Shown here piece after piece: positions 8,247 through 62,094 of a stretch of 64,000 nt of DNA (within the stretch, counting starts at the first letter, position 1; every line of letters starts with the position of its first letter). This stretch comes from Escherichia coli O157 typing phage 14, in the sequence record KP869112. The stretch is one strand, 5' to 3'. The position numbers and the translations under genes are program-made. A model generated the notes under the pieces. That model did no database searches, was not told the DNA's origin, and saw nothing but the letters and a program-made list of their open reading frames with translations.

Positions 8247-8672
8247 ACCCTCATCGAAGCAAACCATGGTGTACTCAAGCCCCTGATGGTTAAGCTTATC
8301 TTGTACATACTCCATGTGGCAGTATTTTACAACAGCTCCCTTTTTGCTTCTATCCCACTTACCAGTGTTCGGATCAAACCGTGGAAAAATGAACTTATGA
8401 TCCTTCTCTCTGAACTTTGGCTTAATGTTTTCAGGCAGATCACTATAAATAGCTACTGCTTTAGGCCATAGTCCACCCTCACCTTCCAACTGTGGTGTTG
8501 TTCTTCGGAACATAACCACAGAGCTGTGGGGGTCATCAATAATTTTAAGTGGCATCAACTGCAAGAGGAACGACTTGCCAGACCCTGCGGCACCGCCGAT
8601 TACCAAAATATCTGCATCGTTTTCTAGGATCATCTTCTGCTTTTCAGAACACGGTCCGTAAATCTTAGACAT
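8247..8672 (-). CDS. terL: terminase large subunit, exon 1 (ATPase N-terminus)
   Basis: Walker A GGAAGSGKS and Walker B MVCFDEG; the stop codon right after FDEG lies inside the intron. Confidence 0.75.
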
Positions 8673-9775: not shown

Positions 9776-9852
9776 TGGTCTCCACGGAGTGATTCGAACA
9801 CTCGACCTCCTGATCCCAAATCAGGCGCTCTACCAAGCTGAGCTACGCGGAG
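9776..9852 (-). tRNA. tRNA-Pro (anticodon UGG)
   Basis: Hand-folded cloverleaf: 7-bp acceptor stem, T-loop TTCGAAT, anticodon loop UUUGGGA, encoded CCA. Confidence 0.75.
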
Positions 9853-9863
9853 TATTTATTATT

Positions 9864-9938
9864 TGGTGGCCCTGGGTGGAATTGAACCACCGTCTGGCGA
9901 TTATGAGTCGCTTGCTTGAACCTTCCAGCTACAGGGCC
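9864..9938 (-). tRNA. tRNA with CAU anticodon (Met or Ile2)
   Basis: Acceptor GGCCCTG/CAGGGCC, T-arm GGTGG-TTCAATT-CCACC, anticodon arm GCGACUCAUAAUCGC, encoded CCA. The anticodon arm resembles the E. coli ileX type as I recall it, so Ile2 is possible. Confidence 0.7.
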
Positions 9939-9939
9939 A

Positions 9940-10015
9940 TGGTGCTGATGGCAGGACTTGAACCTGCAACCTATTGATTACAAATCAATTGCACTACCAA
10001 TTGTGCTACATCAGC
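9940..10015 (-). tRNA. tRNA-Thr (anticodon UGU)
   Basis: Acceptor GCTGATG/CATCAGC, D-stem GCAC/GTGC, anticodon stem ATTGA/TCAAT with loop UUUGUAA, T-loop TTCAAGT, CCA. Confidence 0.75.
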
Positions 10016-10022
10016 AAAAAGG

Positions 10023-10119
10023 TGCTAGGTGATGGAATCGAACCACCTATGTATTCAACGACTACCTCGTCTATTTTCAGGATTAAAAATCCTCGCCCTT
10101 GCCAAAGGGCTTACCTAGC
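10023..10119 (-). tRNA. atypical tRNA-like gene (Lys-like UUU anticodon loop, 29-nt variable region)
   Basis: Perfect 7-bp acceptor GCTAGGT/ACCTAGC, D-arm GCCC-TTTGGCAA-GGGC, T-arm GGTGG-TTCGATT-CCATC; anticodon arm GAGGA-UUUUUAA-UCCUG (G-G mismatch at 27-43). About 29 nt sit between anticodon and T stems, including an ACGA/TCGT hairpin. No complete encoded CCA. Confidence 0.5.
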
Positions 10120-10216
10120 TCAGTATGTTGACCATGTTGCTAGTCGGCGATGACGACTGTAACATTTGATAATCCGGTTCTGCTTCCGGCTTTCGCTTAA
10201 TTACAAGGTCAACAAT

Positions 10217-10308
10217 ATGGCCGAGGGTAATGGAATCGAACCATCATCAAGTCATCCTCAACGGGACGGTTTTCAAGACCGCTTGAGCACCATTGCTCCC
10301 TACCCTCA
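10217..10308 (-). tRNA. tRNA-Ser (anticodon UGA)
   Basis: Class II tRNA, 92 nt: acceptor TGAGGGT/ACCCTCG, anticodon stem GCGGT/ACCGT with loop CUUGAAA, long variable arm, T-loop TTCGATT, CCA. Confidence 0.7.
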
Positions 10309-10422
10309 TTTATAAACAATACTGATAATGACACTGATTTTCGAGCAGTTAGTGACTAGTATAAACGACGATAAATATCAATGCCATTATCTGTATGATT
10401 TATGCATTTAAAACTATAAATT

Positions 10423-10509
10423 TGGTGGGGAGTGGTGGAGTCGAACCACCCGAGTCGCAATGACAATAGATTTACAGTCTACACCGCTACCTCTACGGGA
10501 TAACTCCCC
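10423..10509 (-). tRNA. tRNA-Tyr (anticodon GUA)
   Basis: Acceptor GGGGAGT/ACTCCCC, anticodon stem GTAGA/TCTAT with loop CUGUAAA, long variable arm (class II, bacterial Tyr type), T-arm GGTGG-TTCGACT-CCACC, CCA. Confidence 0.7.
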
Positions 10510-10513
10510 AATT

Positions 10514-10588
10514 TGGCACCCCGTACTGGACTCGAACCAGTGTCAACGGCTTAGAAGGCCGCTGCTTTATCCACTAAGCTAACAGGGC
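10514..10588 (-). tRNA. tRNA-Arg (anticodon UCU)
   Basis: Acceptor GCCCTGT/ACGGGGT (two G.U pairs), D-stem GCTT/AAGC, anticodon stem GCGGC/GCCGT with loop CUUCUAA, T-arm ACTGG-TTCGAGT-CCAGT, CCA. Confidence 0.7.
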
Positions 10589-11686: not shown

Positions 11687-11896
11687 TCAACAGATTCCGG
11701 CCTTATCCCTCCTGTCTGCATATTCTTTAATCGCAACCTCATCTGCATTGGTTACTAAATCTTCAAAGTAACTCTCAAGCTCCTCGTCAATGTCAGGAAA
11801 CCAACTCTTTTTCCTGTCAGTGTGAATAGCAGACTTGTTGAATTTATTACAGTTCTTTGCTACCGGATTGTTCATTAATCGCCCCTCAGCGTTCAT
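11687..11896 (-). CDS. hypothetical protein
   Basis: 69-aa minus-strand ORF; no motif recognised. Confidence 0.3.
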   Translation of the reverse strand: MNAEGRLMNNPVAKNCNKFNKSAIHTDRKKSWFPDIDEELESYFEDLVTNADEVAIKEYADRRDKAGIC

Positions 11897-12464
11897 AGTA
11901 AATCTTATTTAACATTACCTCATCCTTTGCAGAAAGGATATCAAGATATGCATCACCAAATCTTCCTGCAACAACCTCTGCATGATACATCACTTCGTTA
12001 ACATCGTCAAGAGTGATAACCGGATGACCATATCTTTCTGAATATTGTCTCAGGGTGCGATGTAACGAGTCGTCATCATATGCAGACTTTTTAATATCAC
12101 AAACACGACGAATAGCCTTGATGTCGAAAAAACCTGTGCGATACCACCCAAGAAAAAGGTTTCGTGCAGTGTCAACATCTACATTGATACCATCAAGAAC
12201 CTTATCTACAAGATAGCTGTCATCCTTTGGACCAGCGTCCTTAGTGCGAATGTAGTTGCCATCTTTTCCAGGCGATAGCTCCTTCTCATCCCCAACCTGC
12301 ATGCCATCATTTGGCGGTGTTAGCCACTTATCCGGATGCTTACGATCACGAGCGTTAGAATGATTACGCTGGAAACCGGGCTTCCACTTGAAAGTTTTCT
12401 CCATCTGTTCTTCATTCTGATAACGTTTTGCAATCTTTTCACGGTCATCTTTGCGTGAACCCAT
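11886..12464 (-). CDS. hypothetical protein
   Basis: 192-aa ORF downstream of the 700-bp non-coding block; no motif recognised. Confidence 0.45.
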   Translation of the reverse strand: MGSRKDDREKIAKRYQNEEQMEKTFKWKPGFQRNHSNARDRKHPDKWLTPPNDGMQVGDEKELSPGKDGNYIRTKDAGPKDDSYLVDKVLDGINVDVDTARNLFLGWYRTGFFDIKAIRRVCDIKKSAYDDDSLHRTLRQYSERYGHPVITLDDVNEVMYHAEVVAGRFGDAYLDILSAKDEVMLNKIYYER

Positions 12465-12968
12465 AGCTGCCTCCTCTTCAAGTTATAGAAAAACTCACTG
12501 TATCGCTTTGTAACGAGCTTTTCTATCAAACTGGTGCGATTGCCTTACCTGGTATAGTTTATATAGCTGTGGGGCTATTTAGGGGCCTCCTTGTCCGTTT
12601 CCACACATAAACTTTATCCAAACTCGCGCGGGAGACTCTTAACCGACTCCTTACGGCGCTGGCAAGCTTTCGTCGGTGGTCCACATTAGTGCTCGGCCTT
12701 TGGCCTGCGCTATCGCTTCGCTCCCACACATGTTAACATACCTGCATGTATGCACTTCTGTTATTGTGTGCACTATGGAGGCCCGGCATCTCGCCCCTCG
12801 TAGGCGAGTGCCAATGAAGGGCCGACACTATCCATAGTAAGCAATAAATTTAAAACATGGTACTTAGGATCTAGTATATTCTACATAAGTTAAGTATATG
12901 TACTTTAGTACCATAAGTACTAGATCTTTTATTTTTTATTATTTAGTTATTTTAGTTATATTCTTTAT

Positions 12969-13093
12969 GTGTCCGTATCACGGACAGTTAGTGTCCGTAT
13001 TACGGGCAGATGTGTCCGCGTGACGGACAGTAGTGTCCGTATTACGGGCAGATGTGTCCGCGTGACGGACAGTGGTGTCCGTATCACGGACAG
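12969..13093. repeat. array of six 19-bp palindromic repeats (iteron/operator-like)
   Basis: Units at 12969, 12991, 13012, 13033, 13054 and 13075 with 21-22 bp period. Three variants: A gtgtccgtatcacggacag, B gtgtccgtattacgggcag, C gtgtccgcgtgacggacag, in order A-B-C-B-C-A. Each unit is an inverted repeat (TGTCCG...CGGACA). An AT-rich stretch flanks it at 12923-12968. Confidence 0.85.
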
Positions 13094-13167: not shown

Positions 13168-13518
13168 CTAACCAGTTGTTGACATTCGAATAACTTCTTC
13201 TGGTGGCAAAACTTTGGAAAATGTGCATCTTTTACCTCTCCCCTGTGTGGATGTTTCAACCACTCCTGCACATTCTAAAGTTTTAACGCACGCTGCTGCT
13301 TTTGTTTTCTTTATCCCAACATCTGCTGCAATTTTCCTTGTGCTGGGTGTGAAGCGTGAATTTCCTCCAAGTTTATACCAGTTGTGCAGGTAGCAGTATA
13401 CGATCTTGTCATACAAGTCAAGAACAACAACCTCCCCAGTTGTGTCATTCAAAACTTTTGACATAGACAGTATTTCAAGGGGGACTTTAAGATATAGCAG
13501 CTTATCCCCATCTTTCAT
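13168..13518 (-). CDS. hypothetical protein, possible winged-helix DNA-binding protein
   Basis: 116 aa; segment STRKIAADVGIKKTKAAACVKTLECAGVV looks like a helix-turn-helix. Sits beside the repeat array. Confidence 0.35.
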   Translation of the reverse strand: MKDGDKLLYLKVPLEILSMSKVLNDTTGEVVVLDLYDKIVYCYLHNWYKLGGNSRFTPSTRKIAADVGIKKTKAAACVKTLECAGVVETSTQGRGKRCTFSKVLPPEEVIRMSTTG

Positions 13519-52140: not shown

Positions 52141-52261
52141 AGCACCGAGCCCACACAGGTTCCTCATGCTAAAGCATGGCCTGAAGAGGCAAACGTGCAT
52201 AATTCCTGTACATTGGGACGTATAAAACCCTGTTCACATTCTCATTTCCAGAGGAGATTTC

Positions 52262-52477
52262 ATGAAGATAGAAATATTTGGTGGAGCTGACAATACTCGT
52301 GGCCTGATTTACCTTGAATTCGATGAATCATACCTGCCAGAGGTGTTAAATATGGACTCTGTTGCTGATGCTTTGGGAGTAAGTCCTAAAGATCTCTACT
52401 CTGGTGCTGAGATTGATGGTTGGGAGGAGACCATGAACATTGATTTCAGTGAAGTAGGTGATGAACCACTGGACTGA
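52262..52477 (+). CDS. hypothetical acidic protein
   Basis: 71-aa ORF with GGAG SD; last plus-strand gene before the non-coding region. Confidence 0.35.
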   Translation: MKIEIFGGADNTRGLIYLEFDESYLPEVLNMDSVADALGVSPKDLYSGAEIDGWEETMNIDFSEVGDEPLD

Positions 52478-54020
52478 CACACAATTAGCTACCCGGCTAA
52501 AGTGCTGGGAGCACCTATAACACATCTTTCAACTAAATTTCCTACCACCACAATCACTTACCTCCCACACATGACTGTTTGCTTGTTTAGTGAGCAGTCA
52601 TGCCTTGACATTCTTGCCTATCCTGATAAAATTAAGTTCTTCTCTTTTCTTTTACCGAGTAATTCGGGTTTTCTGTTCTCTTCGGTTTGAAGGGGTATGG
52701 AGATACACCTGAGTGAACAGGGTGAACAACCGAACCATTGGCTATGGCATTAGCATGGCGAAGCGGACGGGTGACGAAAGAGGGGCCGGAGGACACCAGT
52801 CACTGCCATATGATATATAGGTGATAACCTGAAGAGTCTGAATAAGTGTTTAAGTACCAGTCAGAGGAAAAGGTGAATGGTAGCCGAAGGGGGAGGGGGG
52901 TTTCTTGTATCTTTAATTTGTATATTATGTATACACTTGTAAACCAACACCATCTGAATTTGCTTACCACACAAAGCGGATAGAGACAAATATTACCTAT
53001 TAAACTTGAATTATTTATAGAAAATACCACAACACCACTTAAGTCTTTGATTTTACACATAAATCCTACAGATATTCACCCTCCATATTTAACATACTTG
53101 TAACATATCTATACCCAACCTGTCTGATCAACTCACCCAACTACATCCTCCATATTTCCCCTGTCTGTACTACCCCTGCCCAGCCGGGAGTCCCGTCATA
53201 TCTGGCTTTCCAGCAAATATCACACCCACAAATATCATTGCCTGAAGAGGGTTTCATCCCATAATACATGCCTTACCTGAAGAGCGCTTCATACACCACG
53301 TAAATTTTTTAATTGACCTGCAATTTTCCCGTCATGACCCCCTGCCCCGCCAGAGAGGTTGACTTTTCCCACACAGACCTGAAGAGCCAGCCAGAAATAT
53401 CTGAACAGGTCCAGTTATACCACGATTTTGACCTGACCGACAGGAGTGCCTCCCTGTCAGGAGCCGGTAGCGACTGGAGTGCTGCCAGGCGGACGAAATG
53501 GGAATACTTCTCATTCTTATAATAATTCTCAAATATCGAGGCAGTGAGGCAAATTAATAGGTGAGGCCGTTCACACAGTGGCACAACATTTGCAACCTAT
53601 CTTGTGGGGTGAATGAGAATACCTATCATTGTGAGAATAGTTATCATTACGGGCAATTTAACATAATACCCATTATGCGCACCACTGGCGATACATACAG
53701 GGGTTGATAACATGAGTTACTGTTTACGCACATAACAATTATATTTCTTACTATTTGTGTGGGATATAGTTAGCAGCCGATAGATTAGATATTGACCTGT
53801 AGACTTCCAACCGTCTAGACGTCTAAACGCCCACACAACAAGGCTTATACATACATCACTGAATGTAAACAGGACCGCAAAAATGCTACCATACAAGCTT
53901 GTAAATTTTTCATGCAGCACTTGACAAAGAGGAGGAAAACTTGTCTGACACACTGGGCACAACATAACATACTGCAGCACAATATGACACAATAACGACT
54001 GTTATTATTTCATGTTTCAC

Positions 54021-54080
54021 TGTTCACGTATAGATTGTTCCCGCATAGACTGTTTACGCCTGGATAGTTCACGCATAGAT
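54021..54080. repeat. four tandem ~15-bp direct repeats
   Basis: tgttcacgtatagat, tgttcccgcatagac, tgtttacgcctggatag, ttcacgcatagat in tandem. Confidence 0.7.
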
Positions 54081-54086
54081 GATAAG

Positions 54087-54317
54087 CCATGCCATTCGTT
54101 TGCATGACAATAATTAACTTGTTTACAATAGATGACATAATATAAAAGCAGGGCAACTATTAGAAGATCATAGTTGCCTTGCTTGTTATGTCATGATTAA
54201 CTAAATACAAGGCAACTATGATCTGATTAATAGATTGCAGACAAACTATCACGGGGGTGATTGTTACTGCTTTTATATTATGTCGCGACTCCGTCGCGCC
54301 ATGCCATTCGTTTGCAT
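54087..54317. repeat. nested repeat structure: 19-bp direct repeats flanking a 17-bp inverted-repeat pair
   Basis: ccatgccattcgtttgcat at 54087-54105 and 54299-54317; acataatataaaagcag at 54135-54151 with exact reverse complement at 54268-54284; internal palindrome ggcaactat...atagttgcc (54151-54177). Confidence 0.8.
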
Positions 54318-54981
54318 AGTTGCCTTATTGTTACAGATAAAATAATTGTATTGTTAATTATTTCTTATCTTTCTATTAGTCATCTAATGATTTCAGTTAG
54401 TATAGTAACGTACAGTAAACATTAGACGACTAAAGATTTCTCTGCTTATAATAACCTAACGTGACAATTCCGGACTGTTTACGAAAAATGTTGACACCTG
54501 AGCTGATTTATGTTATGCAGTTTACACGAATAATTATTTTATGCAGGTATTGACTATTCTGTTATTCTATGGTTGGAATAAATACTTAGCAGGCTATAGA
54601 ATGGTGAGCGTACGTAAATTCTAAGATCTGGCGGCTATAGTTATGCCCGATTTTTCACGTAGAAAACGCTTTTATGAGTGTGTAAGTGTATGACTTATAA
54701 AGATTTTTAGTTGTTGACAAGATACTGAAGATGTGCATCAGGTTAAATTTTGTGCAATAGCGGCATTACGTGCAATTTTGGAAGGAAAAACGTGTAAAAA
54801 ATGGCGCTGCTACCACACAATGAAAGATTATGCAATAGCTATTTTACATGTATGTTTGTACAGTGGTGGTAATTGATGGCTTGTCGATTATTCCACTTGC
54901 CAGGCTGGGCCGTTTGTGGTAGGGGAAATACAGACAAAAAGAAAGGGGCCTTTTAAAGCCCCTGATAGTTTAGTTAATAAA

Positions 54982-55401
54982 TTATAATGATTCGTATATT
55001 TCAAAAATCCGATTTGCCAGGTCGTTACGGTACCGGAATTTTTCTTCACGTTTGATCATTAGATCTTTGAAGCCGTATTCTTTAAGCACTTCATTAACTT
55101 TATAGCGGCATACCCTCATATTGTCTTGCGCGTCACCGATAAACTTGTTGCTATGGTGCATGGCTTTAATTTCTTCTTCCAGGACCAGGGCAACTATGCG
55201 GACCGGATCAAGCTGATAGGCGGTAACATCCATGCGGCATTGTAAACGGCTTTTTACGTCTGCCACCGGGTATACTGCAACCTCTTCCCCGTCAACATTG
55301 ACAATAATTAGTTTACCATCGATTTCGAATCCTTTCGCCGCCGGACCGTGACAAAAAGCGTTATCAAAGCTATATGCCGGATTATTAGATTTGATGTTCA
55401 T
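54982..55401 (-). CDS. hypothetical protein
   Basis: 139-aa ORF with AAGAGG SD and an upstream sigma70-like promoter. Confidence 0.45.
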   Translation of the reverse strand: MNIKSNNPAYSFDNAFCHGPAAKGFEIDGKLIIVNVDGEEVAVYPVADVKSRLQCRMDVTAYQLDPVRIVALVLEEEIKAMHHSNKFIGDAQDNMRVCRYKVNEVLKEYGFKDLMIKREEKFRYRNDLANRIFEIYESL

Positions 55402-61820: not shown

Positions 61821-62094
61821 NNNNNNNNNNNNNNNNNNNNNNNNNNNNNNNNNNNNNNNNNNNNNNNNNNNNNNNNNNNNNNNNNNNNNNNNNNNNNNNN
61901 NNNNNNNNNNNNNNNNNNNNNNNNNNNNNNNNNNNNNNNNNNNNNNNNNNNNNNNNNNNNNNNNNNNNNNNNNNNNNNNNNNNNNNNNNNNNNNNNNNNN
62001 NNNNNNNNNNNNNNNNNNNNNNNNNNNNNNNNNNNNNNNNNNNNNNNNNNNNNNNNNNNNNNNNNNNNNNNNNNNNNNNNNNNNNNNNNNNNNN
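61821..62094. other. assembly gap (run of 274 N)
   Basis: Uninterrupted N characters. Confidence 0.99.

Follow-up and report, generated by a model that had tools for sequence, protein, structure and literature searches.

The DNA analysed here is a stretch of 64,000 nucleotides from Escherichia coli O157 typing phage 14 (record KP869112), which we call the window, and our subject is a gene-free gap of ~2.5 kb in it, on which two blocks of genes converge. The gap is bounded by a plus-strand open reading frame (ORF) at 52262-52477 and a minus-strand ORF at 54982-55401, both without a Pfam match, and the longest ORF within it encodes 91 amino acids (aa) according to a mechanical ORF list. An earlier note on this DNA, made from the sequence alone, had placed the gene limits at 52477 and 54982 with no ORF of at least 100 aa between them, and both statements are borne out. 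A similarity search identifies the window as belonging to Vequintavirus, the rV5-like E. coli myophages with genomes of ~137 kb: about 120 GenBank phage records match the gap and its flanks at 86-95% identity. All records that match the gap are from this genus, and most carry no annotation there. In the genome paper of rV5 (Kropinski et al. 2013, PMC3606486), a grey 'non-coding' box without ORFs is drawn at the junction of genes 163 and 164; its authors described a change of GC skew at the box, which they ascribed to the switch in the direction of transcription, and did not find an origin. In the window, cumulative GC skew reaches its maximum at ~52-53 kb.

The gap contains the following features, given in the order of their coordinates.

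52569-52601, plus strand: hairpin with an 8-bp stem (CATGACTG...CAGTCATG), directly upstream of the promoter, read from the sequence.
52605-52632, plus strand: sigma-70 promoter, TTGACA-16-TGaTAAAAT, with an extended -10 element and a predicted start at ~52639-52642.
52638-52902, plus strand: ultraconserved purine-rich block of 265 nt (261-268), a candidate structured non-coding RNA or pre-primer transcript.
52906-53487, plus strand: unique DNA just inside the right genome end, with a C-rich, G-poor, Rho-utilisation-like plus strand.
53488-53945, no strand: direct terminal repeat of 458 bp, present here as a single copy in a circularly permuted assembly.
53614-53648, plus strand: tandem 18-bp repeat containing TGAGAATA, inside the terminal repeat (Tandem Repeats Finder score 56; repeat_region in Danish records).
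53946-54080, plus strand: hypervariable zone of short repeats outside the right repeat edge, degenerate TGACAYA-type repeats followed by four 15-bp iterons.
54086-54317, no strand: palindrome cluster between 20-bp direct repeats (54086-54105 and 54298-54317, 100% identical).
54341-54943, no strand: AT-rich spacer at the left genome end, 28-36% GC, with an island at 54631-54740 that is conserved in a sister clade.
54944-54963, minus strand: intrinsic terminator that closes the minus-strand genes, AGGGGCTTTAAAAGGCCCCT and then a run of T.

Comparison with related phages strongly supports the view that the gap is a terminal region in which the terminal repeat has been collapsed by assembly, which was one of the possibilities that the earlier note had raised: the segment 53488-53945 is the vequintavirus 458-bp repeat, in single copy. 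In the record of phage HdK5 the first 459 bp are identical (100%) to the last 459 bp and map to 53488-53945 of the window, and terminal redundancies of 458 bp have been reported for EdH4 and HdK5 (Korf et al. 2019, PMC6563267). With 53488-53945 as query, the repeat is found in two places in YN3, HdK5, Gotham and EdH4. Furthermore, nine records (YN3, HdK5, EdH4, Gotham, four 'bov' phages and Pr121LW) start or stop exactly at repeat coordinates, and the Gotham record bears a repeat_region annotation at 1-459. The sequence in the window is 95-97% identical to its relatives' copies. In an alignment of 16 genomes the repeat is well conserved (nucleotide diversity, pi, 0.063), and hot spots of insertion and deletion adjoin both of its edges, at 53330-53480 and 53950-54230. 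The tandem 18-bp repeat at 53614-53648 is a candidate protein-binding site.

Self-comparison of the window yields one copy of 53488-53945, and the assembly is therefore circularly permuted, with the terminal repeat collapsed. The paper describing PhageTerm states that terminal repeats are generated at fixed sites and that the start position is arbitrary in assemblies of such phages. The ends fall in the middle of the window because the repeat copies collapse and the contig was opened at an arbitrary position, and the two transcription blocks seem to converge on a gene-free stretch because each arm of the linear genome is transcribed towards its own end. The left physical end begins with GGCGGACGAAATGGG and the right physical end finishes with ...GAAAACTTGTC. 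The collapse had been tied by the earlier note to an assembly gap elsewhere in the window; this run of 274 N, at 61821-62094, lies 7 kb away inside the minus-strand early-gene block and is unrelated to the terminal-repeat region, so that the tie is irrelevant.

The strongest evidence for fixed ends is that two groups, working on two genera, have put the cuts at homologous positions. Klebsiella phage KPP-1 (Mydovirus, of the same subfamily, Vequintavirinae; PMC9862379) has a 514-bp direct terminal repeat at 116,316-116,829, mapped by double coverage and PhageTerm. As read from its record, this repeat sits in the same kind of gap, between convergent blocks of small genes, and BLAST finds no similarity between the KPP-1 gap and that of the window. 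The left edge reads GTGCTGCCA/GGCGGACGAA in the window and GGTGCTA/GACGGACAGC in KPP-1 (the slash marks the edge), and the right edge CTTGACAAAGAGGAGGAAAACTTGTC/ in the window and CTTGACAAGGAGAGAGAATTGTGTT/ in KPP-1. The left and right edges, set independently in HdK5 and KPP-1, thus occupy the same alignment columns, within conserved motifs. An AAATATC box lies invariably 42-43 nt inside the left edge (+43 in KPP-1). The edge motifs are also present in an uncultured sister clade (L004 and relatives, from IMG/VR and from gut metagenomes).

The virion DNA of vequintaviruses is linear, with its left end at 53488 and its right end at 53945, and hence 53488-53945 at both ends. By analogy with T7-type phages, replicating concatemers would hold one repeat per junction. 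Terminase would recognise sequences around the repeat, cut at both edges, and leave the repeat to be duplicated by fill-in synthesis. The candidate signals for this are the edge motifs GTGCT..A/GRCGGAC and CTTGACAArGAG..TGT/, two kinds of boxes (AAATATC and CCTGAAGAG) and the repeats with TGAGAATA. The terminal repeat is already known for relatives of this phage; the link to the non-coding box of rV5 is not made in the papers searched, and the conservation of the edge motifs and boxes across genera is new. As far as Korf 2019 and Kropinski 2013 were searched, the repeat is not placed inside the non-coding box, and neither the edge motifs, nor the flanking repeat families, nor the promoter-driven block are described.

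This block, at 52638-52902, is the second component of the region. The earlier note had pointed to a purine-rich stretch with G-tracts at about 52690-52910; the stretch is real (GC skew +0.25 to +0.33) and coincides with the ultraconserved block. In an alignment of relatives only 13 of its 268 columns vary, without gaps (pi 0.012), as against 20% and 52% variable columns in the flanking genes (pi 0.05 and 0.14). Conservation is limited on the left by the promoter and its predicted start site and on the right by a G5AG6 tract (52889-52900) followed by TT; the neighbouring sequence diverges and the G-tract is retained in both clades. Only one other double G-run of this kind occurs on the window's plus strand. 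The promoter at 52605-52632 is the top plus-strand site of our scan, with 11 of 12 matches plus the TG, and the scan as a whole found 20 promoter-like sites across the gap against 12.8 +/- 4.2 expected, which is not significantly above chance. In L003 the promoter spacer is altered and the -35 and -10 elements are retained, and the sister clade has a promoter at the same position (TTGCAA-17-TGcTATAAT). Directly upstream, where the window has the hairpin at 52569-52601, the sister clade has a different perfect 8-bp hairpin (ATACCTAC...GTAGGTAT); the window's hairpin probably protects the promoter against transcription that reads through from the plus-strand genes.

No conserved ORF is found in the block: an ATG in it is absent from three relatives, and the insertions and deletions that separate it from the sister clade have lengths not divisible by 3. 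With a covariance model, each genome, the window included, yields a single copy, and KPP-1 and L005 yield none. In a scan of IMG/VR and of one metagenome set, in which 40 of the 51 metagenome matches were attributable to chance, the block was found only in Vequintavirus and in the one uncultured sister clade, and the phage collection held no cultured member of the latter. No E. coli homologue was found. Gathering-level Rfam matches in the window are tRNAs only, and with permissive filters on the region the best match has E = 0.29 and falls on the terminator; the Rfam search that the earlier note had called for was thus run and returned no family for the gap. The block holds one CCTGAAGAG copy, at 52828-52836, and several sister-clade genomes have this part of the block deleted. 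Two further observations concern the block and the DNA next to it. A small hairpin followed by a U-rich run, at 52655-52667 (17-45 nt past the predicted start), reads CCGAgtaatTCGG in the window and, with a compensatory change, CCAGAAtacgcTTCTGG in the sister clade, and might act in pausing or attenuation of transcription. In the sister-clade genome L004 (8716-9486), an ORF for an HNH_3 homing endonuclease, not present in the window, is inserted right after the conserved block.

The consensus structure of the block was calculated with RNAalifold from 11 sequences of two clades, the fold being derived from the same alignment that is used to test it. In this fold the polypyrimidine leader at the 5' end is paired to the G-tract at the 3' end, and the two best-conserved blocks pair with each other (CUGAGUG with UACCAG; UGAAC with GUUUA). 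A 7-bp helix, TATGGCA/TGCCATA in the window, is maintained by a compensatory change as TATCGCA/TGCGATG in the sister clade. On the structure as a whole, 99.2% of cells are paired, and 10 pairs have changed on both sides, as compared with 0-2 when the partners are slid. Shuffling of the alignment columns gives a z of -3.82 for the plus strand, a level that none of 200 shuffles reached, and of -1.74 for the minus strand. We regard this as weak-to-moderate support for structure on the plus strand.

The earlier idea that non-coding RNA genes lie in the gap is thus plausible for 52638-52902, where a conserved promoter and an extremely conserved sequence without an ORF go together with a structure that is conserved to some degree; it gained no Rfam match. 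As far as the sequence goes, the block would probably be either a new non-coding RNA or a primer-forming origin transcript. The most likely reading, to which we would give about an even chance, is that of a transcribed, structured non-coding RNA. In this best reading a strong host-type promoter, ~850 nt inside the right end, would transcribe the ~265-nt constrained block ending in G5AG6, and the product would be made early in infection; alternatively, the transcript would prime replication or read into the junction. The promoter-driven block is described neither in Rfam nor in the literature searched, in which no evident transcriptome study of a vequintavirus was found. Three other identities for the block were tried and rejected. 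A CsrA sponge is rejected, as GGA motifs are not enriched (6 observed, 7 expected); an antisense regulator of phage genes, as complementarity to the rest of the window extends over 12 nt at most, which is the shuffled expectation; and a host-derived element, as there is no E. coli match.

Between the block and the repeat, the segment 52906-53487 has a GC skew of -0.27 to -0.67. It contains most of the CCTGAAGAG boxes of the region, which start at 52180, 52828, 53241, 53276 and 53378. The window has 8 copies of CCTGAAGAG where 0.43 would be expected, each of them on the plus strand, and 3 of the 8 are Pro-Glu-Glu codons within genes, so that the real enrichment consists of the five copies in 52180-53386. 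The four copies listed by the earlier note are all present, one of them starting at 53276 and not at 53277, and the copy at 52180 is additional to them. AAATATC boxes are found at 53215, 53230 and 53395. The divergent sister clade also has five CCTGAAGAG copies in the same layout, and the joint layout of the two kinds of boxes is kept in the sister clade and partly in KPP-1, where the AAATATC boxes are retained. The pair of CCTCCATATTT copies noted before (53080-53090 and 53147-53157, our family D6) is present and may be due to chance. Finally, a C5TGC4 tract lies at 53338-53348, and tracts of the form C5-x-C4/5, which are paired G-runs on the minus strand, occur 130-150 nt outside the left repeat edge in all three clades (window 53338-53348, L079 ~2670-2691, L004 ~8385-8405).

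On the repeat's other side, Tandem Repeats Finder (score 71) recovers the four tandem 15-bp repeats that had been noted at 54021-54080, with the unit TGTTYACGCATAGAT, and an additional iteron-like copy is found at 53721-53735, within the terminal repeat. Their number and sequence vary among close relatives: there are many more in rV5, Murica (L012) and L003, and fewer in FFH2, where part of the array is missing. The palindrome cluster that follows was correctly seen by the earlier note as an inner 17-bp inverted repeat (54165-54181 / 54208-54224) between direct repeats; these, however, are of 20 bp and not 19, and there is also an outer inverted repeat of 18 bp (54134-54151 / 54267-54284), nested around the inner one. 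The inner 17- and 15-bp inverted repeats are composed of four GGCAACTAT boxes, which alternate in orientation within 54152-54324; the whole window has 5 copies against 0.40 expected. The cluster includes the hairpins ATCAC-GGGG-GTGAT and GCGAC-TCC-GTCGC, and it folds equally well on the two strands (-87 and -89 kcal/mol). The sister clade and KPP-1 have counterparts of these palindromes, whose arms differ in sequence.

In phage FV3 (L011) exactly 212 bp are missing between the 20-bp direct repeats (54106-54317 in the window), apparently through recombination between the repeats, and the palindrome cluster is hence dispensable, as FV3 lacks the whole of it. The converse idea, that the 212-bp segment is a mobile element, is ruled out by the equivalent palindromes in the sister clade and KPP-1, and FV3 is best read as a deletion between direct repeats. 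Another length variant is a module of ~64 nt with three GC-rich hairpins (CTTTCGCTGGCTATGCCAGGTGACCTTTGGTCACCCCTTCGGGTGTTTCT), inserted at 54131 in L008-L010, L012, L015 and L017-L021 and not in the window; its stems show compensatory changes in the sister-clade versions (L026, L029), and it is perhaps a small element, either mobile or structured, or else a cluster of terminators. The AT-rich spacer at 54341-54943 may be where DNA is unwound, provided that there is an origin here, and the iterons, palindrome cluster and AT-rich DNA together may serve in replication or as insulators. The terminator at 54944-54963 is annotated at the same place in Murica and HdK5.

Taken together, we consider it very likely that the gap is where the genome ends (and concatemers join) in a phage whose terminal repeats are short and direct; the conserved block beside the repeat is probably transcribed from its promoter. 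Several observations weigh against this interpretation. For the present phage, we infer the ends from relatives whose repeats are 95-97% identical to its own. Two papers give PhageTerm calls of 'circularly permuted' or 'headful' for vequintaviruses; the 'bov' records, one of the sets behind these calls, have been revised and now begin exactly at the repeat. Libraries made with transposase lose the termini, according to the PhageTerm paper. In Shigella phage CM1 (L014, 1-2438), two tandem copies of a unit that starts at 53488 measure 553 bp each, and not 458 bp. A second oddity of this kind is seen in phage I29 (L013, 1346-2438), in which 53111-53702 is duplicated and joined via a perfect inverted copy. 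These duplications are probably assembly products of doubled end coverage, or else would reflect real variation of the right edge. The palindrome, as judged from its absence in FV3, is not essential, though it is conserved as a structure. As for the RNA, the folding energy of the single sequence is not significant with both strands folded (z -0.26), and the clades, when folded separately, share only 9 pairs, all in the 5' hairpin. Only two clades are available, so that each covariation is a single event. The block also has no clear intrinsic terminator: conservation ends at the G-tract, which is followed by the C-rich, G-poor (Rho-type) zone.

The alternative with most to recommend it is that the region is mainly a replication origin, which could coexist with the terminal repeat and which we consider possible, if on the unlikely side. 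In one version of it, a phage or host initiator would bind the 15-bp iterons, which at 54021-54080 adjoin DNA of 28-35% GC (54100-54450). Iterons beside AT-rich DNA are thus present as expected of an iteron-type origin; conserved iterons, a nearby initiator gene and a DnaA cluster are not found in the window. Indeed, iteron number and sequence drift freely, FFH2 does without part of the array, and the three perfect DnaA boxes (TTATCCACA) that do favour an origin lie in the sister clade's presumed repeat (L004 7845-7884). The maximum of cumulative GC skew at ~52-53 kb, together with the skew change noted in the rV5 paper, points in the same direction; it coincides, however, with the switch in the direction of transcription, as the rV5 authors remarked. 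In the other version, the G-rich transcript from the promoter at 52605 would stall at G5AG6, form an R-loop or G-quadruplex and prime DNA synthesis, as do the transcript from the mitochondrial light-strand promoter (LSP) at conserved sequence block II (CSBII) and ColE1 RNA II. This would suit the resemblance of G5AG6 and the T residues after it to the G5-6AG7-8 tract of CSBII, the retention of the G-tract in both clades while its neighbours diverge, and the fact that rV5 has a family-A polymerase and a gp4-type primase-helicase (PMC3606486). On the other hand, a primer role alone does not require 265 invariant bases, and on linear DNA a rightward fork from 52900 would reach the end within 1 kb. 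The full form of this idea, in which promoter and 265-nt block are a transcription-primed origin beside the genome end, a bacterial-virus counterpart of LSP-CSBII whose stalled RNA forms a G-quadruplex-stabilised R-loop that primes a T7-like replisome, is in our estimate quite unlikely. In a weaker form of it, the block may represent an early phage non-coding RNA of a new class that acts in trans.

The block might instead act as DNA, that is, as a large cos- or pac-like site at which the small terminase subunit or another DNA-binding complex would direct the cuts at the repeat edges. Packaging sites of 200-270 bp exist in other phages, the block lies 600-1050 bp from both cut sites and has a CCTGAAGAG box like those nearer the repeat, and the thermodynamic support for an RNA structure is weak. 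We nevertheless think this distinctly unlikely: the left limit of conservation coincides exactly with a conserved consensus promoter whose spacer is free to vary, the plus strand is favoured by helices with G-U pairs (z -3.8 versus -1.7), the CCTGAAGAG part is missing from several sister-clade genomes, and KPP-1 has the same terminal-repeat architecture without the block. The possibility that the gap is decayed coding sequence (pseudogenes), or a set of unannotated small genes with functionless repeats, is very improbable. Several GenBank records do annotate small hypothetical proteins inside the gap, and an ORF of 38-64 aa is seen repeatedly on the minus strand at 53141-53269. When 16 relatives and the sister clade are compared, however, the small annotated ORFs differ in length or frame; the recurrent one shifts in length, start and frame among the 16 relatives, is disrupted in L017 and gives way to a different frame in the sister clade. 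The best-conserved block has no ORF, an ATG in it being missing from three relatives, and the gap stays gene-free in another genus. The earlier note had proposed a comparison with relatives, with clear homology to a degraded coding region as one part of the outcome that would speak against it; the relatives compared do not bear out a coding region. Small proteins are ruled out, as the gap ORFs are not conserved in frame or length and the ATG and GTG candidates in the block are broken in relatives.

Our preferred reading, a genome-end region flanked by a probable promoter-driven RNA, explains the 'non-coding box' of rV5 as the physical end region of the genome rather than as a terminator zone between convergent genes or as junk. 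It provides the correct start coordinates for vequintavirus genome records, most of which, among those listed, have been opened elsewhere, and accounts for odd assemblies of this locus, among them the duplications in CM1 and I29. It is useful for engineering and rebooting these phages, which are candidates for therapy, and it yields candidate sites, conserved from genus to genus, at which terminase would bind and cut. If the early RNA or the primer-forming origin is true, the 265-nt block would add a new functional element to a group of phages in wide use.

Two observations were made elsewhere in the window. At 12967-13093, in a gap of ~700 bp between minus-strand ORFs 11886-12464 and 13168-13518, six tandem palindromic units of 21 bp (GTGTCCGyrTyACGGrCAG) form an array that looks operator- or iteron-like. 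Within a cluster of seven tRNAs (9776-10588), ARAGORN predicts a tRNA of 99 nt on the minus strand (10021-10119; Rfam 35.5 bits), of unassigned identity and with a four-base anticodon, 'atcc'.

Comparison with known systems places these elements in context. At CSBII, transcription from the light-strand promoter ends at a G5-6AG7-8 tract, and a G-quadruplex-stabilised R-loop primes DNA synthesis. The resemblance to the window amounts to one 12-nt tract, at a distance of ~265 nt and not ~120 nt from the promoter; the polymerase here would be that of E. coli, and the hybrid and primer are putative. The window does share with CSBII and ColE1 the order of a promoter and then, a fixed distance further on, a G5-6AG6-8 tract in the non-template strand, and the mitochondrial system resembles rV5-type phages in its T7-like replisome. 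Phage phi29 encodes, close to its genome terminus and under an early promoter, a structured packaging RNA (pRNA) of 170-270 nt, for which Rfam includes a family. Contrary to pRNA, our block has no Rfam match and a role in packaging would be hypothetical, and the ends of phi29 are protein-primed rather than terminal repeats.

The concatemer junction of T7 and T3 is similar to the region studied here in its short exact terminal repeat, its fixed ends, its adjoining repeat arrays and a strong upstream promoter pointing into the repeat. In T7 the arrays SRL and SRR flank the terminal repeat, and a hairpin intermediate is formed; pausing of RNA polymerase at the concatemer junction has been linked to packaging. 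The present phage differs from T7 and T3 in being a 137-kb myovirus with a repeat three times longer and without sequence similarity, its promoter is of the host sigma-70 type and not one for a phage polymerase, and its genes run towards the ends instead of inwards from the left end. KPP-1 differs from the window in having no DNA similarity at the level of BLAST, no ultraconserved block and no tandem 15-bp iterons. It agrees with the window in the position of its repeat in a convergent gene-free gap, in the left-edge motif GTGCTA/GACGGAC and the right-edge motif CTTGACAAgGAG..TGTgtt/, in the ATGAGAATA repeats within the terminal repeat, and in the large palindrome to its right. HdK5 and EdH4, finally, are of the same genus and sequence as the window, and have a terminal repeat of 458 bp that is 95-97% identical, with the same edges, in the gene-free box between genes 163 and 164.

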